A stretch of DNA of 64,000 nucleotides from Candidatus Syntropharchaeum sp. (GTDB lineage: Archaea > Halobacteriota > Syntropharchaeia > Syntropharchaeales > Syntropharchaeaceae): positions 19,409 to 83,408 of the forward strand of contig JAOQII010000004.1 in the NCBI GenBank assembly GCA_026134025.1, given 5' to 3'. Under the pieces are notes generated by a model. It saw only the letters and a program-made list of their open reading frames with translations. It searched no databases and was not told the DNA's origin. Positions 5,408 through 34,087 of the stretch are shown in pieces; position 1 is the stretch's first letter, and each line of letters opens with the position of its first letter. The position numbers and the translations under genes are program-made.

Positions 5408-8077
5408 ATGAGCGCATTGCAGCTGAAAGAACTCGATAAGATTTTTAATCCAGGTAGTATTGCCGTGATCGGTGCAAGCAATAAGAAGGAGTCCGTTGGG
5501 TACACACTCTTCAATAACTTAATCGGTGCAGGATATGAGGGGGTTGTCTATCCCGTAAACAAAAGTGCTCCAAGTGTGCAGGGTATCCACAGCTACAGGA
5601 GTGTTGATCAAATTCCAAGAAAGATCGATCTCGCACTAATTGCCGTTCCAGCAAAGACCGTCCCTGAGGTTATGCGCGAGTGTGGTGAATCAGGTATTAG
5701 AGGGGCGATCATCATCTCTGCGGGTTTTAAAGAGATCGGAGCAAAGGGTAAAGAACTCGAAGATGAAGTCCTTGATATTGCCAGAGATTATGACATCAGG
5801 TTCATAGGTCCAAACTGTCTCGGCATCATACGACCAAAGATTCATCTCAATGCGAGCTTCGCCCCGCTCATGCCGGATGATGGAAAAATTGCATTCATAT
5901 CTCAGAGTGGAGCATTATGTGCCGCGGTTCTCGACTGGTGTCATCATCGTGGGATCGGGTTCAGCTCATTTGTATCGGTCGGTTCGATGGCAGACATCAC
6001 ATTTGGAGATCTCATCGATTATTTTGGTATGGATCCAGATACAGGCGCCATCATACTCTATATCGAAGCCCTGAAAAATGTGCGGGGTTTCATGAGTGCT
6101 GCCAGACACTTTGCAAAGACCAAGCCAATAATTGTTGTAAAATCAGGAAGGTGTGAGCGCTCTGCAGCGGTTGCCACATCACATACAGGGGCGATGGCAG
6201 GAGACGACGATCTCTATGATGCTGCATTCAAACGTGCGGGTATCGTTCGTGTTACCAGGATCGAAGAACTCTTTGACTGTGCCGAAGCTCTCGATTCCCA
6301 GACCAGACCCACAGGTAATCACCTCGCCATCGTGACAAACGCCGGTGGCCCTGGAGTTATGGCTGCAGACGAGTTACTCTCACAGGGTGGTGAGCTTGCA
6401 AAGCTTTCAAATAAGACAATTGAGGCTTTAAATGCCTGTCTTCCTCCATACTGGAGTCATGGAAACCCTGTTGATATCCTGGGTGATGCAACCCCAGAAC
6501 GGTACCGTGATGCAACGTCGATCACACTCAGAGATCCAAATGTAGACGGCGTTCTTCTGCTCCTGACCCCTGTCTCGATGTCTGATTCAGAGCTTACAGC
6601 GAGGTACATCGTGGATTTAAACCGTGATATCTCACCTGGCGATGTCTTTAAACCTCTGCTTGCCTCATGGATGGGTGAGGCGCTGGTTGAGAAGGGGCGA
6701 AAGATACTGGAGTCTGGGGGTATTCCAAGTTTTGAGACACCTGAAAGTGCGGTTACCACATACCTCCACATGTACCAGTACACAAAGAACATCGCGTCCC
6801 TCTATGAGATGCCAGAGGACATTCTGACCGGGTTTCATCCTGCAAAAGACGAGGTTAAATCGATCTTCAGGACTCTTGCAAGAGAAGGGCGGGAGCTTCT
6901 AACCGTTTACGAATCGATGAAGGTGCTTGCAGCGTATGATATACCCACAGTAAAAACCATGTTAGCGCATGATCCAGAAGAGGCTATCAAGATCGCGGAT
7001 GAGATCGGCTATCCTGTGGCAATGAAGATCGTATCCCCACAGATCACACACAAGACGGATATCGGGTGTGTTAAACTCAATATCCAGACGCAGGAAGATG
7101 TAAGAACTGCGTTTGAAGAGATTAACCGCAATGCAGGAGAACACGATCCAGATGCAACGATTCATGGTGTTGCGATCCAGCCGATGGTAACTGGTGCGGG
7201 TTACGAGGTCATTATAGGATCGAAGCGGGATAAGCTCTTTGGACCTGCCATATTGTTTGGTGCAGGCGGCACGATGGTTGAGTACATCAGGGACCAAACG
7301 ATCGGTTTCCCTCCTCTAAATCAGGCGCTGGCACACAGGATGATCGAGGATACAAGAATATCAAAGATTCTCAAAAATGGTTTTAGAGGAAGTCCCCCGG
7401 CAAATATCCGCCTGATCGAGGAGGCACTTGTCAAGATTTCATTCATGCTCATAGATTTCCCTGAGATCGAAGAGATGGACATAAACCCGATCCATGTCAA
7501 TGATACCTCCCTTCTTGCACTTGATGCGCGAATTTTGATCAACCCTGGAAAGGTTAATATCAGTGAGCCACCTGGAAGCGATCTTATCATAAGCAGGTGT
7601 CCCACCAAATACAATCAGGAATGGACTTCGCCTGCAGGAGATAAAATTTTCTTCAGAGTCGTCCGTCCCGAGGATGAACCTATGTGGCTTGAGATGGTAA
7701 GATCCTTCTCTGATGAGACGATACGCCAGAGGTTCTTTGCCCCACTCTCTGAGATCGATCACCACATGGTGGTTCGATACTGCCACATCGATTACGACCG
7801 TGAGATTGCGATTGCGGCGTTTGTTGAAGGAGAGGAAGGATACAGGATGGTTGGCGTGGGTCGCGTGGTCATACTCTCGGACGAAAATACAGGTGAGTTT
7901 GGTATGGCGATACGTGATGAATATCAGGAAAGAGGTATCGGCAATAAGTTAGTTGACATAATGATCGAGATTGCCAGGGATTTCAGGTTAAGGACGATTA
8001 TAGGCGATGTGCTTGCCGATAATTACCGTATGTTGAAGATCGCAGAGGATAAAGGATTCAAGATAAAAACGCCATGA
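5408..8077 (+). CDS. Pat-like protein: NDP-forming acyl-CoA synthetase (ADP-forming ACS alpha/beta domains) fused to a C-terminal GNAT acetyltransferase
   Basis: 889 aa. N-terminal CoA-binding Rossmann (SIAVIGASNKKESVGY), succinyl-CoA-synthetase-like and ATP-grasp domains. The C-terminal roughly 150 aa carry GNAT motif A (QERGIGNKLVD). The architecture is the same as the bacterial lysine acetyltransferase Pat/PatZ. Confidence 0.75.
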   Translation: MSALQLKELDKIFNPGSIAVIGASNKKESVGYTLFNNLIGAGYEGVVYPVNKSAPSVQGIHSYRSVDQIPRKIDLALIAVPAKTVPEVMRECGESGIRGAIIISAGFKEIGAKGKELEDEVLDIARDYDIRFIGPNCLGIIRPKIHLNASFAPLMPDDGKIAFISQSGALCAAVLDWCHHRGIGFSSFVSVGSMADITFGDLIDYFGMDPDTGAIILYIEALKNVRGFMSAARHFAKTKPIIVVKSGRCERSAAVATSHTGAMAGDDDLYDAAFKRAGIVRVTRIEELFDCAEALDSQTRPTGNHLAIVTNAGGPGVMAADELLSQGGELAKLSNKTIEALNACLPPYWSHGNPVDILGDATPERYRDATSITLRDPNVDGVLLLLTPVSMSDSELTARYIVDLNRDISPGDVFKPLLASWMGEALVEKGRKILESGGIPSFETPESAVTTYLHMYQYTKNIASLYEMPEDILTGFHPAKDEVKSIFRTLAREGRELLTVYESMKVLAAYDIPTVKTMLAHDPEEAIKIADEIGYPVAMKIVSPQITHKTDIGCVKLNIQTQEDVRTAFEEINRNAGEHDPDATIHGVAIQPMVTGAGYEVIIGSKRDKLFGPAILFGAGGTMVEYIRDQTIGFPPLNQALAHRMIEDTRISKILKNGFRGSPPANIRLIEEALVKISFMLIDFPEIEEMDINPIHVNDTSLLALDARILINPGKVNISEPPGSDLIISRCPTKYNQEWTSPAGDKIFFRVVRPEDEPMWLEMVRSFSDETIRQRFFAPLSEIDHHMVVRYCHIDYDREIAIAAFVEGEEGYRMVGVGRVVILSDENTGEFGMAIRDEYQERGIGNKLVDIMIEIARDFRLRTIIGDVLADNYRMLKIAEDKGFKIKTP

Positions 8078-13089: not shown

Positions 13090-13884
13090 GTGGCAATCGA
13101 GATTAATGTCATCGAGCTCACTGAGAGGTATGCAAAGTTCATAATATCTGGCCTGACACCCGCGTCTGCAAACGCGCTCAGGCGGTGCATGATCAATGAG
13201 GTACCGCGGATGGCGATCGATGAGGTTAATTTTTATGAAAATACATCAGTACTATTCGATGAACAGCTTGCATTGCGTCTTGGTCTCATACCACTCAGGG
13301 CAGATCCAGGACTTTACGTGCTGGAGGATGAGTGTACGTGTGAGGATGGCTGCTCACTCTGCCAGTCCACGGCTTCGATCAGTGCAGAAGGTCCCATAAA
13401 GATTTATTCGTCGGATCTCGTCATGGGCGATGAGAACATCTCGGTTGCAGATGATAATATATTGATCGTAGATCTCAAAGACGGGCAGAAACTTCTCTTG
13501 AACGCTATCATAAAGCTTGGAACAGGAGAAATGCACGCGAAATGGCAGAATGCTGTTGTATGTGGTTATAAAAACATCCCGCATGTGAGCATTACGGACT
13601 GCAACGATTGCGGTAGATGTGTTGATGTGTGTCCCAGAGACGTCTTTAAATGTGTGGATGGGCGTGTCATGATCGGGGATGATATCAACTGCTCATGCTG
13701 CAATCTCTGCGTGGAAGCCTGCGAGCTTGACGGAATCGTGATTGAAGAGGATCCTGAAGCGTTCCTCTTTAAACTTGAGACAGATGGAGGGATGACCGCG
13801 AGTGCGTTAATTGTCTATGCGGTTCGAATGCTTAGAGATAAGGCAGTCAGGCTGAAATCTGTGCTTGAGCGTTTTTCCCATTGA
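13090..13884 (+). CDS. rpoD: DNA-directed RNA polymerase subunit D (Rpo3) with 4Fe-4S cluster domain
   Basis: 264 aa, conserved position after S11, Cys clusters (CNDCGRCVDVCP, CSCCNLCVEAC). The last roughly 13 codons lie inside the 243-bp repeat. Confidence 0.85.
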   Translation: MAIEINVIELTERYAKFIISGLTPASANALRRCMINEVPRMAIDEVNFYENTSVLFDEQLALRLGLIPLRADPGLYVLEDECTCEDGCSLCQSTASISAEGPIKIYSSDLVMGDENISVADDNILIVDLKDGQKLLLNAIIKLGTGEMHAKWQNAVVCGYKNIPHVSITDCNDCGRCVDVCPRDVFKCVDGRVMIGDDINCSCCNLCVEACELDGIVIEEDPEAFLFKLETDGGMTASALIVYAVRMLRDKAVRLKSVLERFSH

Positions 13885-14088
13885 GCCTTATCCCGGTAAT
13901 CGTCGATATATTCTTCTCCTGCATCACAACACCGATCGTTGAAGAGGCACACTCGATCATCGGCTCTCTGAGTGAAACAACAATAAATTGCGCGCTCTTT
14001 GATAACTTTTTGATCATCTTTGCGACCTTCTCGACATTCACACCATCGAGCATCATATCTATCTCATCCAGTGCATAGAACGGTGCTG
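13846..14088. repeat. Copy 1 of a perfect 243-bp direct repeat, a duplicate of the smc 3' end (last about 75 codons, antisense) placed downstream of and overlapping the rpoD 3' end
   Basis: Nucleotide identity with 15706-15948 checked by eye. The ORF track shows identical 69-aa (minus) and 65-aa (plus) translations at both sites. Confidence 0.9.
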
Positions 14089-14118
14089 TCTGAAAAGAGA
14101 ATAAATTAGAGATCTGTC

Positions 14119-14892
14119 TTATTTCACCTCTGATTTTACAAATCCTTCTGTTCCGTTTATCAGCTCTTTAACTTCTTCTATTGGCGGTTCCTCTTTTGCA
14201 TGGTCACACTTATTACGAATATCCCCCAGCCATTCAATCTTTTTTCGTTTGGTTTCACTCAAATGACCCGCTTTACGCAATCCTTGGGCGAGTGAGTTGA
14301 TACCTTTAATAACAGTGTGATTCACAGGCGGCGTTGAAGTCTCGCATAAGGTCTTTAAATAGCGTTCCAATGCAACACCAGCAACCGCACCCGCAGCACG
14401 GATAAAACCGTGATCTAAAAGAAGTCTTGCCTCCTCTAATTCGCTTTCAACTAGATCTGCACTGATTGTTCTTCTTAATTTTAAGTTTTGTATTTCAAAG
14501 ACTTCAGGTAATGATAACAGTAAGTTCCTTTGTGTGTCAAAGAAATCTGTAAACTCTTTAATTATGTAATGCACATCAATCTTAGCCCAATCTTTTCGAA
14601 GTTGGAGTAAACATAAAATTTCCTCATATTCTTTTATAAATTCGTCTTTTCGATCAGATAAATATTCTTTTATCAGGGTTTCTCCTTTTGAATACCATAT
14701 TTGATATGATTGAACATATTTTCTTTGTTCCTCTCTAAAAGAGTTCTCGAATCACATCATTTCAGTATTTAAGTCATTTATATACGCAAACGTAAAGGTA
14801 TCAGATAAAAAACCAGTCACCTTTTTCTCAATTTCTTCTGCTTCCTTCTCCAATTCCCTAACAGTATGGATCAGTTCACTTAATTGTGTCAT
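14119..14892 (-). pseudogene. HEPN-domain protein (R-x4-H motif RNKCDH) interrupted by an in-frame TGA. A 47-codon N-terminal piece is followed by a 210-codon distal open frame; the listed GTG-initiated 151-aa ORF (14119-14574) is its terminal part
   Basis: Manual reverse-strand translation: ATG at 14892, in-frame TGA at 14752-14754, then a 59-codon stop-free frame continuing into ORF 14119..14574. The C-terminal GDIRNKCDHAKEE is the HEPN RNase signature. Confidence 0.5.
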
Positions 14893-14942
14893 TCATCTCA
14901 TCCCAAGTTCTTTAGACGTTTATTCTATTGAGAGATATCAAA

Positions 14943-15383
14943 TTATTCTTGCGTTAGGTATTCAAATGCACTGATATACTTGTATTTGATTACATTCTTG
15001 TATTTTGTTATCGTTCTTTCTTTTGCTACATCATGATACTTAGTTACCGTTCGTTGTTTAGCGACTTCGTGATACTTTGTGACTGTTCTCTCTTTTGGCA
15101 GATAAGTTACGACATATTGAAATTTGGAAGGTCGAAGTACTTCATAGGAGCAATTCAAAAATCTAGTACTATTAACCGTCCATTCGAATTGGTGGCTTTC
15201 ACCAGGCATCAAAAATACACTATCTGTTATAGCATTATATGATCGTTCAGTAGTTACTATATGGAAAACTACCTGAAACATTCCACCACTATCCTCTGTA
15301 TTCGTTATCATAACCATTAAATCAAGTAATTCGATAGACCCCAGTCCAGAGTACAACTTTAAAAAATGCTTATAAAAAACCAA
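14943..15383 (-). CDS. Hypothetical protein with C-terminal 11-aa tandem repeats (ERTVTKYHEVAKQ / RTVTKYHDVAKE / RTITKYKNVIKY)
   Basis: 146-aa ORF inside the repeat-flanked islet. Low GC. Confidence 0.35.
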   Translation of the reverse strand: MVFYKHFLKLYSGLGSIELLDLMVMITNTEDSGGMFQVVFHIVTTERSYNAITDSVFLMPGESHQFEWTVNSTRFLNCSYEVLRPSKFQYVVTYLPKERTVTKYHEVAKQRTVTKYHDVAKERTITKYKNVIKYKYISAFEYLTQE

Positions 15384-15421
15384 ACCCGATGTTTCATAAC
15401 TATATGGGATATTATCTGTGG

Positions 15422-15637
15422 TTAATTCTTTTTTTCATAATATGTTTCTACATCCTCATAAGGTTCCATTTCATAATATGTTTCTGTAGTTTCGTATGGC
15501 TCTGTTACATAATACGTCTCGGTCGCACTATATGGCTCCTTAACCGTGTAAGAGACTTCTATCACTGGCATAGATATTGCAACGCAAGCACACAATGTTG
15601 CCAATAAAGCACCTATTGCAATCCATTTCCTTTCCAT
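15422..15637 (-). CDS. Small secreted or membrane-anchored protein with triplicated EPY-x3-ETYY repeats
   Basis: MERKWIAIGALLATLCACVAIS signal-like N-terminus (internal Met of the 87-aa ORF), followed by KEPYSATETYYVTEPYETTETYYEMEPYEDVETYY. Confidence 0.35.
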   Translation of the reverse strand: MERKWIAIGALLATLCACVAISMPVIEVSYTVKEPYSATETYYVTEPYETTETYYEMEPYEDVETYYEKKN

Positions 15638-15705
15638 TTGTGAACCTCTAACTCTTTTTTTATTGATCCTATATAAAACTATCAATTCACATCTTAAGAG
15701 AAGCG

Positions 15706-15948
15706 GTCAGGCTGAAATCTGTGCTTGAGCGTTTTTCCCATTGAGCCTTATCCCGGTAATCGTCGATATATTCTTCTCCTGCATCACAACACCGATCGTT
15801 GAAGAGGCACACTCGATCATCGGCTCTCTGAGTGAAACAACAATAAATTGCGCGCTCTTTGATAACTTTTTGATCATCTTTGCGACCTTCTCGACATTCA
15901 CACCATCGAGCATCATATCTATCTCATCCAGTGCATAGAACGGTGCTG
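15706..15948. repeat. Copy 2 of the 243-bp direct repeat (the native 3' end of smc)
   Basis: Identical to 13846-14088 and contiguous with the smc body. Confidence 0.9.
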
Positions 15949-18900
15949 GCCTGTATCTCTGGATTGCAAAAAGAAATGAGAGTGCTGTAAGACTTTTTTC
16001 ACCACCAGATAGTGCTTCTAATCGTTGAATAGGTTTTCCTGCTGGCTGAACCTGAATCAACAGACCTCCTTCAAATGGCTTTTCTCGAGATTCAAGCAAT
16101 ATCTCACCATTCCCATCAGAAAGCTCTCTGAAGACTTCTTTGAAGTTTGCATTTATCGCATCAAAGGTTGAGAGGAAGACTTCCCGTTTTCTCATCTCAT
16201 ACCCCTCGATCCGCTCGATGATCGCACGCCGCTCATTTGAGAGTGTATTTCTTCGCTGCATTAGCTCATCAGACCGTGATTCAACCTCAAAAAACGCATC
16301 TATCGCCTTCATATTTACAGGCTCGAGTGCACGCATCCTCTCTTCAATTCGCTTAATCTGCTCTCTGATCGTATCATGATCTTCTCTAACCTCTCCCTCT
16401 GGATCGATCCCTGCTTCATCGATCCTGCGTTTTAGCTCTGTAATCTGCGATACGAGTCCTTCTTCGATCTTACGAAGATCTGTTAGTGCGCCATCGATCC
16501 GTTCACGTCTTAATTTCAATCCCTCAATCTCCTCACGGAGTTCCATGACCCGACTGAAACGCTCTTTGAATAGATTTTTAAGCTTTGAAAGCTCCTCTTC
16601 CAGTGCCTTCTCGCGTTCAAGAAGTTCTTCGCGTTCGCTCTCAAGTTCTTTGATCCTGAAGATATTATCCTTTATCTCATCGTTTATGCCCGAAAGGCTT
16701 GCATCCAGCGCTTTTAATCGGTCTTCTCCCTCAGCTATCTTCTTCTCAAGATACTCTCGATCGAGCGTGATTGACTTGATTGAGAGGTCAATCTCGCCCA
16801 TCCTACCTTCGATCATCCTTATCTCCTCGGAGATTTGACGCTCCTTCTTTGTAAGTTCGGGTATCTTCGATGCCTTCAGATCTGATTCAAGCTCACCGAT
16901 CGCTGATTCAAGCTCACTTATTCGCCTTCCTGATGCAGCGAGTGCCTCCTCAAGCTGGATAATTTCAGCCCTGTTATCCTCCTTCTCAAATCTTTCAAGC
17001 TCACGCCTGAGATCGTTCAGGTTACGTTCGCTCTCTTTCTTCTCAATCTGCAACTTATTCAGGATACTCCCCTCTTCAAAGAGATCCTCGCGAATCGTTG
17101 CGTTCCGATTCTCAAGCGCCTTTATTCGTTCAAGATGCATCTTAAGCTCTGATTCAAGGACTGTTCTCTCCTCCTGAAACTTCAGAAGCTCATTTCCTGT
17201 GCTACTTGTGAACCTGAACCGTGATTTTAAGGGTGCACCCCCTGTCATGATACCGCTTCGCTCTATAAGATCTCCATCGAGCGTAACAGACCTGAACCGA
17301 TCCATCAATCGCCTTCCATCCTCAATCGATTCAACAACCACTGTATCCCTGAAGACGTGCCAGAACGCCCGCTCGAATTTGGGATCATACTCGATCAAAT
17401 CGATCGCAAATCCAAGAACGCCTGGATAATCAAGTCCATCCAGTTTTCTCCCATCTTTAAGCTTGTTCAGAGGTAAAAATGTTGCACGCCCCTTCTTGAT
17501 CTGTTTCAGGTACTCGATCGCGTACTGTCCATCGATATCTGTCTCAACAACGATGTACTGCATTTTCCCTCCTGCTGCAGCCTCAAGCGCAACCGCAAAA
17601 CGATTTTCTACCCTTCCAAGCTCAGCAATCGTTCCATAAACCCCCTCAAGCTGATGCATTCTCACAGCTTCCATAACAGACTTAACACCCTCGCTATACC
17701 CTTTGAATTCCTTTTCTGCGAGTACACGGGCCTCTATTTCCATTATCTTCCGCTCTAAAGCTTTGAGATCTTTCTCACGGCCATTCAGCAACGTGCGCTC
17801 TTCACCAAGCACCTTCTCATTCTCCTCAAGTTCCCTGGATAGCTCATGCGTTCTCTTTGCTCTAAGTGAGATCTCTCTCTTCTTTGTATCAAGCTCTTTC
17901 GCAAGTTTTTTCATTCTTTCAGTTATCAAATCAATTTCACCAGATCTTCTTCGTGAACGGTCGAGTATCATATCCTGTTTCATCAGAATCTCGTTCTTTT
18001 TTGACTGCTCAACCTCAAGCTCTCTACGGAGGGTGTATAACCTGTGGGTCGCATCCTCTGCCTTAGATCCTGCAGACTCAATCTCCTTTTTTATTCCATC
18101 AAGGATCGCGGTCTTCTCATCCAGCGTCTCCTTCAAGCTTCCCTTTCGTATCCGCTCATCATCGAAGCGTTTTAATGTGTCTTCAAGCTCCTGACGGTTT
18201 GATTCAAGCTCTATGAAGATACTGTTCTTCTGTGTCTTTAGATCTTCTATCCGCTCTCTACCCAGCGATACAAGCTCTTTGAAACGAGTTATAGTGCCAG
18301 AAACTTCTTCGAGACTTTTTTTAATGGTTAACACTTCTTCTTCACGTTTTTTTACAAGCCGTACCTCGTCTTCATCAAGATCTGACTGTATATCCTCCAT
18401 CTGTGCTGTTTTATTTGAAATACCCCTTGATATAATCTCTTTCTTCTCCAATCTATCCTCTATTGAGCTTTTTATCTCATCAAACTCCTGCTCTTTGAGA
18501 TTGAGGTCTGCAAGAAGGAGAGACGCCTCACACCGTACCTTCTCCTCCTTGAGGTTTTCATACATAAGCGCCTGATCTCGTTCGGTCTGGAGGACTTTGA
18601 GACGGTTTTTAAGTTCTTCAAGGATAATATCGAGCCTCTCGATCCTTGATCGCACCTCATCAAGCTCATGATGCGCTCGCTCCTTCTTTTCATCAAACTC
18701 CGCCACGCCAGAGATCTCATCTATGATCTTTCGCCGCTCAAATGAACTCATATTGAGTATTCTGGTGACATCGCCCTGCATTATCACATTGTATGAGTTT
18801 GAGGTGATGAAAGACCTGCTCAGTATCTCCTGGATCTCTGAAAATGTGCACGGCTTCCCATTGATATAATAATAACTGTAATAACCGTTATCCGTCTTTT

Positions 18901-19210
18901 TTACCTTCCTTGAAATCGTAACAGCATCTCTATCTATCGGAATTAAACGATCACTATTGTCAAAGTGGACCTTCACTTCGGCCTGATTTATCCCATCTCC
19001 ATTACCAGAGCTGTAGATAAGATCGGTCAGCTTATCGGCGCGCATATCTCTCGATTTTGAGAGCCCAAGCGTGAAGAGGATAGCATCAAGTACATTGCTC
19101 TTTCCACTCCCATTGGGTCCTGAAATCGTCATAAACTCGTCAAAGAGCGGTATATGAGTCTGATTTTTAAATGATTTAAAGTTCTTCAGGTCTATACCCT
19201 TAATATGCAC
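15707..19210 (-). CDS. smc: Chromosome segregation protein SMC
   Basis: 1167 aa. N-terminal Walker A (ISGPNGSGKSNVLDAILF), long coiled coils, hinge, C-terminal LSGGEKSLTALSFLFAIQ signature plus Walker B (FYALDEIDMMLD). Confidence 0.95.
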   Translation of the reverse strand: MHIKGIDLKNFKSFKNQTHIPLFDEFMTISGPNGSGKSNVLDAILFTLGLSKSRDMRADKLTDLIYSSGNGDGINQAEVKVHFDNSDRLIPIDRDAVTISRKVKKTDNGYYSYYYINGKPCTFSEIQEILSRSFITSNSYNVIMQGDVTRILNMSSFERRKIIDEISGVAEFDEKKERAHHELDEVRSRIERLDIILEELKNRLKVLQTERDQALMYENLKEEKVRCEASLLLADLNLKEQEFDEIKSSIEDRLEKKEIISRGISNKTAQMEDIQSDLDEDEVRLVKKREEEVLTIKKSLEEVSGTITRFKELVSLGRERIEDLKTQKNSIFIELESNRQELEDTLKRFDDERIRKGSLKETLDEKTAILDGIKKEIESAGSKAEDATHRLYTLRRELEVEQSKKNEILMKQDMILDRSRRRSGEIDLITERMKKLAKELDTKKREISLRAKRTHELSRELEENEKVLGEERTLLNGREKDLKALERKIMEIEARVLAEKEFKGYSEGVKSVMEAVRMHQLEGVYGTIAELGRVENRFAVALEAAAGGKMQYIVVETDIDGQYAIEYLKQIKKGRATFLPLNKLKDGRKLDGLDYPGVLGFAIDLIEYDPKFERAFWHVFRDTVVVESIEDGRRLMDRFRSVTLDGDLIERSGIMTGGAPLKSRFRFTSSTGNELLKFQEERTVLESELKMHLERIKALENRNATIREDLFEEGSILNKLQIEKKESERNLNDLRRELERFEKEDNRAEIIQLEEALAASGRRISELESAIGELESDLKASKIPELTKKERQISEEIRMIEGRMGEIDLSIKSITLDREYLEKKIAEGEDRLKALDASLSGINDEIKDNIFRIKELESEREELLEREKALEEELSKLKNLFKERFSRVMELREEIEGLKLRRERIDGALTDLRKIEEGLVSQITELKRRIDEAGIDPEGEVREDHDTIREQIKRIEERMRALEPVNMKAIDAFFEVESRSDELMQRRNTLSNERRAIIERIEGYEMRKREVFLSTFDAINANFKEVFRELSDGNGEILLESREKPFEGGLLIQVQPAGKPIQRLEALSGGEKSLTALSFLFAIQRYRPAPFYALDEIDMMLDGVNVEKVAKMIKKLSKSAQFIVVSLREPMIECASSTIGVVMQEKNISTITGIRLNGKNAQAQISA

Positions 19211-25815: not shown

Positions 25816-26859
25816 ATGGTAAAGCGCGTATCAGCCCTGATAACTGTGATGGCAATCGCATCGATCACGGCATTTTCAGGATGTTTTGGGGTAGCACCTG
25901 CTGATACAATCGAGGATGAGAATACGATCGAAGAAACACCAGTATTTACGCCTGATTCCAACAATAGCAGCCTTGATAGTACACCGCCGAGCATACCACT
26001 CCCAGTTGCTATGTCTAACGTTAGCGTAGATGCACCCCCTCTCATTGAAGCGGAGGATCGAGAAGAGGTCGAAACTCCAGAAACGTCCACCCCTACCTCG
26101 CGCCCAACACCAGCCACGCCTCCTGTTCCTGTAATCGATGTGGTGGTACTGGATATACAGTTTGATCCGCCAGGAAATGACCGTGAGAACCTCAATGGTG
26201 AGTGGGTCAGGATCCTGAACAGGGGTGCGTCTGAGGTTGATATTGGTGGATGGAGCCTTGCGGATCGTAAGAACCATCTATACATCTTTCCAGAGGATTT
26301 TACGCTCCTTCCAGATGAGAGTGTGAAGGTGCATGTTGGCGCAGGGGAAGATACTCATACAGAACTCTACATGAATGAAAAGACCCCAATCTGGAATAAT
26401 GATGGAGATACTGCAACGCTCTCTGATGCAAATAATGTGATCATCGATCAGTACAGCTACACGCCCGAGACAGTGCCGACATCCTCTAAAACCGCCACAC
26501 CAACGCCAGCTCAAACTCAAACAGGTTCTATTGGGATTGTGATAGAAGAGATCAACTACGACCCAGAAGGTAACGATCGTGATAACCTCAACGAGGAGTG
26601 GGTCATGATCTTAAATACGGGTGATGACAATATAGATATGGGAGGATGGATCATCGTTGATGCGAAGAATCATTCGTACGTCTTTCCAGAAGGCTTTGAA
26701 CTTCCCCCTGTTTCGAGGGTCAAGGTTCATGTGGGAATAGGTGATGACAGCGATACAGACCTCTATATGAACGGAAAAAACCCGATCTGGAACAATGATG
26801 GCGATACTGCAACGCTCTTCGATTCACGAGGGGAGATCGTGGATCAATACAACTATTGA
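25816..26859 (+). CDS. Secreted lipoprotein with two lamin-tail domains (LTD) separated by Thr/Pro-rich linkers
   Basis: Signal peptide plus lipobox-like FSGC. Two copies of about 110 aa: NLN(G/E)EWV(R/M)ILN...GGW(S/I)...DxKNH(L/S)Y(I/V)FPE...VKVHVG...DLYMN...PIWNNDGDTATL...IVDQYSY. Confidence 0.65.
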   Translation: MVKRVSALITVMAIASITAFSGCFGVAPADTIEDENTIEETPVFTPDSNNSSLDSTPPSIPLPVAMSNVSVDAPPLIEAEDREEVETPETSTPTSRPTPATPPVPVIDVVVLDIQFDPPGNDRENLNGEWVRILNRGASEVDIGGWSLADRKNHLYIFPEDFTLLPDESVKVHVGAGEDTHTELYMNEKTPIWNNDGDTATLSDANNVIIDQYSYTPETVPTSSKTATPTPAQTQTGSIGIVIEEINYDPEGNDRDNLNEEWVMILNTGDDNIDMGGWIIVDAKNHSYVFPEGFELPPVSRVKVHVGIGDDSDTDLYMNGKNPIWNNDGDTATLFDSRGEIVDQYNY

Positions 26860-32680: not shown

Positions 32681-32817
32681 GATATATCTTTATTCAGGCT
32701 CACTTAAACGATTGCGGGTGATGACAAAATGACATCCATGCTCGCATGATCACAAAATTTATATAGGGGTAATTAGAGAAGTAATTTGATTACACAGAGG
32801 TAAGTAGGCGATATGGT

Positions 32818-33486
32818 ATGAAGATGATTAGAATGGCACTGGTTGGAGTGCTTCTGATGATGGTGGTTATGCCGGCGGTTGGGGCTACATTCACGCTTGC
32901 TGATGAAGTGAAAAATTCGGTCGATAGCCAACCATATATCGTTATAGTTATGGAGCAGGGGGGTGGACCACCTGTTATACTAAAGCAAGGTGAGTCATAC
33001 GAGGTTCTTAGCGGCGTGCCTGTCAACTTCACGGCGGTATATATCTGGAAATGGCCTGGGAATGAGTTGAGTGATAATGAGATATTGGATATCGTACAAA
33101 GTGATGGAGAGACCATCAATAAATTTCAACAAAATACAGTTACTTCGCAAGCGTTCAATATAAAGAATATGTGGAAGGTGTATATCAATGAATCTACGGG
33201 TGACAGCACGGTATTAGGAGAAGGTGGACCATTGGATTTGAAGTGGAAATTCATACCGCGTTGCTACCTAGTTGGATGGACGCCGGCAGATAAAGTAAAT
33301 GAATACTATCCAGGCAAGGTTGGATCAACGTTTGATGTGACTGCAATGTGGAATAAATGGTGTTGGGGATCATCAATTCTTACAATAGAAGATATAGGTA
33401 TCGTCCCAGAACCCACCACTCTCGCCTTGACAGTCCTTGGCATCCTGGGCATTCTTGGATTTGTTAGAAGGAGAAGAGAGGCGTAA
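32818..33486 (+). CDS. PEP-CTERM-type sorting-signal protein (secreted)
   Basis: Signal peptide MKMIRMALVGVLLMMVVMPAVGA. C-terminus VPEPTTLALTVLGILGILGFVRRRREA. Confidence 0.65.
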   Translation: MKMIRMALVGVLLMMVVMPAVGATFTLADEVKNSVDSQPYIVIVMEQGGGPPVILKQGESYEVLSGVPVNFTAVYIWKWPGNELSDNEILDIVQSDGETINKFQQNTVTSQAFNIKNMWKVYINESTGDSTVLGEGGPLDLKWKFIPRCYLVGWTPADKVNEYYPGKVGSTFDVTAMWNKWCWGSSILTIEDIGIVPEPTTLALTVLGILGILGFVRRRREA

Positions 33487-33553
33487 CACGTATTATCACA
33501 ATGTTTATAACTGATAATGTGAGAGATGAAGTAATAATAGGAGGCGATATTGT

Positions 33554-34087
33554 ATGAAGACAATTAGAATGGCACTGGTTGGAGTGTTTCTGATGATGCT
33601 GGTTATGCCGGCGGTGGCAGCGTATAATATAGATATTTTCATGGATTGGAACCATGATGGTAATTTCGCGTGCGATGAAAGGCTTGTGCCAGGTGCTAAC
33701 TATACCGTTACGGCTGGTGTGGAGTATGATTTTATAGCCCACTTCTACGACTGGGGAGCGGACTCTTTTACATGGAATTTTGATGTTGGTGGACGCCATG
33801 ACGGTGAAGGGACAACATATCAGTATGGCGGGTACTGTAAGAATTGTAGCTGTTGCATGGATTGTGGCTGGTGGTCCAATGTATTATCCTATACCCCGGT
33901 GCTTGATGAGACCTTTGAGGTAAGTGCAGATTGCCTTGCCCATGGGATAACTGGATATTATGGTAGTACAAACGTAACGTTTGAAGCAGCAAGCATAACT
34001 GCCGTCCCAGAACCCACCACCCTCGCTCTAACAGCCCTTGGCATGCTGGGTGTTCTTGGATTTGTCAGAAGGAGAAGAGAGGCGTGA
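33554..34087 (+). CDS. PEP-CTERM-type sorting-signal protein, Cys-rich paralog
   Basis: Near-identical signal peptide (MKTIRMALVGVFLMMLVMPAVAA) and C-terminus (VPEPTTLALTALGMLGVLGFVRRRREA). Cys cluster YCKNCSCCMDCGWW. Confidence 0.65.
   Translation: MKTIRMALVGVFLMMLVMPAVAAYNIDIFMDWNHDGNFACDERLVPGANYTVTAGVEYDFIAHFYDWGADSFTWNFDVGGRHDGEGTTYQYGGYCKNCSCCMDCGWWSNVLSYTPVLDETFEVSADCLAHGITGYYGSTNVTFEAASITAVPEPTTLALTALGMLGVLGFVRRRREA

Follow-up and report, generated by a model that had tools for sequence, protein, structure and literature searches.

A probable recently inactivated HEPN-family gene in a decaying two-gene cassette at the smc/rpoD junction of a Candidatus Syntropharchaeum genome

Layout of the HEPN gene

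We examined a disrupted gene of the HEPN family in a 64,000-nucleotide stretch of Candidatus Syntropharchaeum DNA (the window; all positions count from its first letter unless another contig is named). The gene lies on the minus strand and is made up of the following parts:

14119–14892, minus strand: disrupted HEPN-family gene, with a conceptual product of 257 aa by translation
14755–14892, minus strand: the first 46 codons (MTQLSELIHTVRELEKEAEEIEKK...TEMM, by translation), now a stand-alone 46-aa ORF
14752–14754, minus strand: in-frame TGA at the position of a conserved Trp47, a single TGG-to-TGA transition judging from the homologue alignment and the codons
14575–14751, minus strand: 59 stop-free codons (residues 48–106), which their identity to homologues marks as former coding sequence without decay as yet
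14119–14574, minus strand: residual 151-aa ORF in the ORF list, from GTG at 14574 to TAA at 14119–14121
14200–14217, minus strand: R-x4-H catalytic motif RNKCDH, read from the sequence (R226, N227, and H231 of the conceptual product)

The 257 residues of the conceptual product are the sum of 46 + 1 + 59 + 151. A preliminary description had reported an ORF opening with ATG at 14892, the TGA at 14752–14754, 59 stop-free codons beyond it, and a GTG-initiated 151-aa ORF with GDIRNKCDH near its C terminus, and we found every one of these elements in the sequence. The length of 47 codons that it gave for the upstream ORF stands if the TGA is counted; the sense codons number 46. The GTG at 14574 is the first in-frame start downstream of the TGA, and the 151-aa ORF that it opens contains the whole HEPN domain and is labeled “HEPN domain-containing protein” in GenBank.

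The stop-free stretch that follows the TGA exceeds what chance would leave. With the local composition of 42% A and 29% T, the chance of 59 codons without a stop is ∼0.003, with 53 of 20,000 shuffles of the stretch free of stops. Each of the other two frames of the gene contains 24 stops. Besides the TGA, the HEPN gene has zero further stops or frameshifts.

Homologues across the in-frame TGA

A homologue search over 5.8 billion proteins yielded 73 relatives. Each of the 14 closest full-length homologues is a single protein of 256–288 aa; they are 64–75% identical to the 257-aa product, cover 90–100% of it, and align straight through the position of the TGA. Of 24 full-length homologues in the alignment, 23 have Trp in this column and one has Leu, and the corresponding codon is TGG at all five loci that we read (L002, L004, L007, L056, and L059). 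The Trp column and the TGG codon at five loci therefore point to a lesion that consists of one G-to-A transition. Identity to the homologues amounts to 57–76% over residues 1–46, 66–78% over residues 48–106 (the now “dead” stretch), and 65–77% over residues 107–257. By this measure, the 59-codon stretch is conserved as strongly as the remaining protein. Since the HEPN gene carries no second lesion, its inactivation seems to be recent compared with the divergence among family members.

The unbroken form is also the rule at greater distance. An exhaustive profile search recovered family representatives at three cut-offs: 3,678 (E ≤ 0.001), 1,571 (1e-10), and 545 (1e-30). Among the best 150 of the 545 cluster representatives at the strictest cut-off, almost every protein is 214–296 aa long and is matched in one stretch. 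None of the homologues examined is naturally split at the point of the TGA. A 151-aa protein with 99% identity (P0015), which is this residual ORF as recorded, comes from an NCBI metagenome-assembled genome (MAG) of Candidatus Syntrophoarchaeum sp. Another short protein, P0016 (156 aa, with the same Val start), was considered as a second short form and rejected, the gene being cut by a contig end. A scan of JGI metagenomes for a near-identical intact allele gave only relatives at 65–74% identity, and the exact rpoD product of the window had no entry among the records searched. The preliminary description had favored a recent nonsense mutation in a HEPN protein of roughly 257 aa within the islet, and homologues that run unbroken over the TGA, with Trp in its column, support this reading. 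It made no mention of the breakage of the neighboring cassette gene, of the perfect 246-nt duplication of the smc 3′ end around the islet, or of selenocysteine as a meaning of TGA that needed exclusion. It had also mentioned, as less likely, a two-gene arrangement with a GTG restart; a natural two-gene split was rejected, all homologues examined being unsplit.

HEPN domain and relation to known systems

The conceptual protein combines an N-terminal helical region of ∼125 aa with a C-terminal HEPN four-helix domain. Pfam family PF05168 matches residues 149–254 with 28.1 bits against a gathering cut-off of 22 (E = 2.5e-6), and the homologue P0001 reaches 36.3 bits against the same family. The domain has the four-helix up-and-down bundle of the HEPN superfamily. 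Its motif falls under the R-x4-6-H signature that Anantharaman et al. (2013, PMC3710099) described for the active site of HEPN RNases. R226, C229, H231, and E176 are invariant in 64 family members. N227, the polar residue that follows the R, is invariant in a 26-sequence alignment, and E176 sits within ALERYLK (E-x3-K) as the upstream acidic residue of helix 2. Given this established signature, the intact protein is predicted to be a metal-independent endoribonuclease. It may serve as a toxin or abortive-infection effector with a putative role in defense, and its N-terminal region, which is all-helical and has no zinc ribbon, is putatively a regulatory, sensing, or oligomerization part.

Existing models and databases say little about the family as such. 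No PADLOC or NCBIfam model matches it, and the N-terminal helical extension of ∼125 aa is unmatched by Pfam, PADLOC, and NCBIfam models. PHROGs returned weak matches only (best E of 0.018 for the 257-aa product; the distant homologue P0020 matches phrog_2039 at 2e-05), sequence matches in the PDB were nonsignificant (best E of 0.055), and the literature on Syntrophoarchaeum and HEPN yielded nothing relevant. Relatives at 27–45% identity occur on 20 viral or proviral contigs of IMG/VR. The family is thus an uncharacterized, sizeable HEPN subfamily with a conserved N-terminal helical module, inside a well-known superfamily.

We compared the protein with several described HEPN systems. Within the HEPN superfamily family PF05168 (HEPN-T type), solved examples are AF0298 (PDB ID code 2hsb), TT1696 (1ufb), and ST0689 (1wol); in contrast to these, the protein here has a family-specific N-terminal helical extension of ∼125 aa and no adjacent nucleotidyltransferase, and the present copy is a pseudogene. 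RAZR is a single-protein abortive-infection RNase composed of a zinc finger and a DUF4145 HEPN domain (PMC13017515). Like RAZR, the protein here would combine, within a single chain of ∼250–260 aa, a noncatalytic N-terminal domain with an R-x4-6-H HEPN domain at the C terminus. However, its N terminus is all-helical and without a zinc ribbon, and the similarity to DUF4145 is weak (12.5 bits for the 257-aa product and 19.4 bits for P0001, below the gathering score of 23.1). We therefore rejected membership in DUF4145 or a RAZR-like group, with DUF4145 under its cut-off and the N-terminal zinc finger absent, and the likeness concerns a possible mode of working. Toxins of the HEPN/MNT type II or VII toxin–antitoxin pairs (SO_3166/SO_3165, PDB ID code 5yep; 7ae2) are half the size of the protein here. 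No MNT or nucleotidyltransferase gene adjoins the HEPN gene here or at the homologous loci inspected, and an assignment to HEPN/MNT systems was dismissed because the sole neighbor in the islet is a frameshifted membrane-protein gene without a Pfam match. Some distant family members (33–43% identity) carry precomputed matches to both Abi_C (PF14355) and PF05168, whereas the 257-aa product and its close relatives showed no PF14355 match in our scans.

The membrane-protein partner and the cassette at other loci

Upstream of the HEPN gene on the same strand lies a second broken gene, with the following features:

14943–15637, minus strand: frameshifted gene for a membrane-anchored protein of ∼200 aa, the upstream partner in the cassette, delimited by tblastn with P0075
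15422–15685, minus strand: 87-aa ORF, one half of the membrane-protein gene
14943–15383, minus strand: 146-aa ORF, the other half
15419–15452, minus strand: frameshift interval, which includes an A7 run and one additional VETYYEKK repeat unit
15670–15677, minus strand: archaeal TATA-like box TTTATATA, the likely promoter of the cassette
from 15648, minus strand: GAGGT ahead of ATG at 15637, the likely ribosome-binding site

In the tblastn comparison, residues 1–62 of P0075 align to 15637–15452 and residues 61–197 to 15419–14949 in a different frame. The homologues P0075–P0083 are single proteins of 182–212 aa. In its intact form, the partner is predicted to have an N-terminal transmembrane (TM) helix, a long β-hairpin stalk built from EPYTxTETYY and TVTKYHDVxKER repeats, and an Ig/FnIII-like β-sandwich head (pLDDT 89). 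Structure comparison of this model gave generic fold matches only, and the membrane-protein family has no Pfam or PADLOC match. With the TATA-like box TTTATATA and the GAGGT before ATG 15637, the cassette seems to carry a promoter of its own, and both of its genes would probably be cotranscribed from the TATA box at ∼15670–15677.

The order of membrane protein followed by HEPN protein is also found in L059/L060 and in L056, and L059 aligns to window positions 15683–14139, almost the whole islet, with 72% nucleotide identity. Relatives are annotated as Syntrophoarchaeum and Methanophagales. The ∼200-aa membrane protein recurs beside the HEPN gene in three of ∼6 distinct loci and is the only neighbor to recur; elsewhere, each cassette gene occurs alone. 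We rejected the notion of a conserved partner gene, since the neighbors vary (a 243-aa RNAIAH protein in L002, DUF7662 in L004, and TPR and other proteins in L007).

HEPN family neighborhoods are highly variable in general. The 243-aa protein of L002 (437–1168) has an R-x4-H motif of its own (IRNAIAH) and overlaps the start of the HEPN homologue by 4 nt, so that a tandem of two distinct HEPN-like genes would lie immediately upstream of the housekeeping gene prs. The neighbors in L004 (3790–4698) and L007 (827–2362) include a protein with 120-nt (40-aa) tandem repeats (SLIWSY...VADGKVFVGS), resembling a PQQ-type β-propeller, and a TPR-repeat protein.

Insertion at the smc/rpoD junction

Both broken genes are contained in a low-GC islet bounded by a long direct repeat:

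14089–15702: inserted islet of 1,614 bp with the two-gene cassette, delimited by GC content, the repeat, and an empty site
13843–14088: repeat copy A, an orphan smc fragment (the final 242 nt of the gene plus 4 nt) in which rpoD has its true 3′ end (to 13884)
15703–15948: repeat copy B, the functional 3′ end of intact smc

The GC content of the islet is 34.8%, compared with 45.8% for the whole window. The flanking direct repeat of 246 nt is perfect (13843–14088 is identical to 15703–15948) and includes the last 42 nt of rpoD. The smc gene is intact on the minus strand (15707–19210, 1,167 aa), and rpoD occupies 13090–13884 on the plus strand; the 246-nt duplication keeps both genes intact. The corresponding locus of Ca. 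Syntrophoarchaeum butanivorans BOX1 (L029) has nothing between the two genes: smc and rpoD are convergent, with an overlap of 38 nt, and S11, S4, and S13 come next in the same order as in the window. Positions 6662–6908 of L029 align to both repeat copies. The uninterrupted smc/rpoD junction in L029 indicates that the islet is an insertion into an ancestral junction.

A 246-nt duplication without an integrase is the most unusual feature of the locus. Between the repeats, the 1,614 bp hold no integrase, recombinase, or replication gene, only the two broken genes, and an integrase-borne integrative element was therefore rejected. We found no flanking direct repeats at other loci of the cassette and no other long perfect repeat in the window. 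Our guess at the simplest route of insertion is Campbell-type recombination of a small circle with a captured smc fragment.

Beyond the perfect repeat, ∼15 nt remain loosely similar (15688–15702 vs. 13828–13842; CGCTTCTCTTAAG vs. TGCCTTATCTCTAAG). The sole difference between the MAG and a Logan contig of the region (L001) falls in this stretch, at window position 15700 (C vs. A; position 36 of L001). The loosely similar stretch and the mismatch may reflect a recombination junction or heterogeneity in the population.

Inactivation of the cassette and alternative readings

Taking these observations together, we consider it highly probable that 14119–14892 is a recently inactivated gene for a single-chain HEPN protein of ∼257 aa, situated in a decaying, acquired two-gene cassette. 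In the proposed course of events, a low-GC, horizontally acquired cassette would have inserted at the convergent, overlapping smc/rpoD junction, with the 246-nt duplication sparing the housekeeping genes. Its first gene would have encoded a membrane-anchored β-sandwich protein and its second gene the HEPN protein. One G-to-A transition would then have turned the TGG of Trp47 into TGA, and translation would end after 46 residues. The first cassette gene is frameshifted, which suggests that the whole cassette is decaying, and a foreign cassette of 1.6 kb with two independent lesions points to decay of a dispensable or harmful acquisition. The loss may have been tolerated or even favored, an unregulated RNase being presumably costly.

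This reading presupposes that the TGA is real and that it terminates translation. The source is a metagenome-assembled genome, one base separates the TGA from the ancestral codon, and the second lesion adjoins an A7 homopolymer, a typical error site; the real population could accordingly have TGG and an intact gene, with the TGA being an error of sequencing or of the consensus, or else a minority allele that the assembly fixed. However, the separately built Logan contig L001 (SRR21418560, 1,677 nt), which may share its reads with the MAG, matches window positions 15735–14059 at every base except 15700. Both the TGA and the frameshift region recur in it, in an otherwise identical cassette. Moreover, the window is clean in other respects, with long ORFs over 89% of its length and the 1,167 codons of smc undisturbed, and decay accounts better for two independent lesions within a single 1.6-kb insert. 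An error, which the preliminary description had listed among its less likely alternatives, is disfavored by the shared TGA, if possibly from shared reads, and we regard it as very unlikely. As to the meaning of the codon, TGA closes 28 of the 46 long open frames in the window. S13, S11, rpoD, and smc all end in TGA and have no in-frame TGA, and the rpoD and smc products share their C-terminal ends with their Ca. S. butanivorans counterparts. TGA is thus a genuine stop codon in this organism, and its use as terminator of these four genes led us to reject reassignment to Trp or Gly (codes 4 and 25). Programmed recoding, by which the TGA would be read through (for example, by a near-cognate tRNA-Trp) or decoded as selenocysteine to give a low dose of full-length toxin, would profit from the intact downstream frame, and insertion of Trp would recreate exactly the wild-type protein, as the homologues have W. 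UGA is, moreover, the leakiest stop codon in many organisms. Selenocysteine was nevertheless rejected: the homologues have W rather than Cys or Sec at the site, Rfam detected no SECIS or other RNA family in 13500–16200, and there is no tRNA-Sec within the window. Against recoding of any kind, TGA ordinarily terminates conserved genes here, the TGA at issue has U at +4 (TGAT), which in E. coli makes for strong termination, and zero relatives have a stop at this column, which is therefore not a conserved feature. Nothing suggests programming, and the read-through once offered as a further alternative is extremely improbable.

Two further readings accept the TGA as a stop. The 151-aa ORF retains the full HEPN domain with RNKCDH, a helix begins at residue 107 in the AF2 model, which places the cut at the boundary of a helix rather than inside one, and solved stand-alone HEPN proteins have 120–150 aa (e.g., 2hsb and 1ufb). 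It is thus conceivable that the ORF is expressed from its GTG as a truncated but functional and possibly deregulated stand-alone HEPN protein, with the 46-aa ORF as a leftover or partner peptide. A TATA-like TTTATAAA at 14640–14633, ∼60 nt upstream of the GTG, would suit such expression, but an octamer of this kind is expected by chance at 65% A+T, and no Shine–Dalgarno-like sequence precedes GTG 14574. The size range of nearly all of the best 150 family representatives speaks against a short form, and the only other short close homologue is the contig-end artifact described above. The 59 codons upstream are conserved coding sequence rather than spacer, and the partner gene is broken too, as fits decay. 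We therefore think expression of a working fragment unlikely. The other reading concerns the form in which the cassette exists: it could be a free circle of ∼1.86 kb (including a 246-nt smc fragment), or reside beside an empty chromosomal site, with the assembler having threaded the loop into the chromosome. L001 ends 30–33 nt inside each repeat copy, where the assembly graph branches, the two copies are 100% identical, and a chromosome plus a circle would yield an identical graph. However, the MAG contig runs through repeat, islet, and repeat, which would normally require read-pair support, and nothing replication- or integration-like is present in the 1.6 kb. A free circle is, on balance, improbable, and the pseudogene conclusion is unaffected by whether the cassette is integrated or circular.

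Annotation and wider context

If the HEPN gene is indeed inactivated, the 151-aa “HEPN domain-containing protein” of the GenBank-style annotation represents the C-terminal part of a 257-aa protein whose gene is broken, and the two small upstream ORFs represent the halves of another broken gene; both genes should be flagged as pseudogenes. In itself, this is an ordinary pseudogene, with nothing to surprise a specialist. The locus also offers a clean before-and-after case of a small foreign cassette at a junction of essential genes, smc and rpoD, with the empty site in a sister species. A more far-reaching reading, which we put forward as speculation with a low chance of being right, would see in the intact pair of TM-anchored β-sandwich surface protein and HEPN RNase with a helical N terminus an uncharacterized mobile defense or abortive-infection module of alkane- and methane-oxidizing archaea. 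The module would move as an integrase-less unit of ∼1.9 kb by recombination via a captured 246-nt stretch from the smc/rpoD overlap and would have been silenced here by the knockout of both genes.

Imperfect repeats of other kinds occur elsewhere in the window. Two tandem paralogous genes lie on the plus strand at 32803–34085. Their N-terminal signal region is repeated (32803–32879 vs. 33539–33615, 92% identical), and they share a C-terminal tail, VPEPTTLALTVLGILGILGFVRRRREA up to the stop, at 33403–33486 with an 89% copy at 34003–34085, that resembles a PEP-CTERM-type sorting signal. A direct repeat of 221 nt, with copies that are 71% identical and spaced by 396 nt (26239–26459 and 26635–26855), is probably an internal protein repeat.
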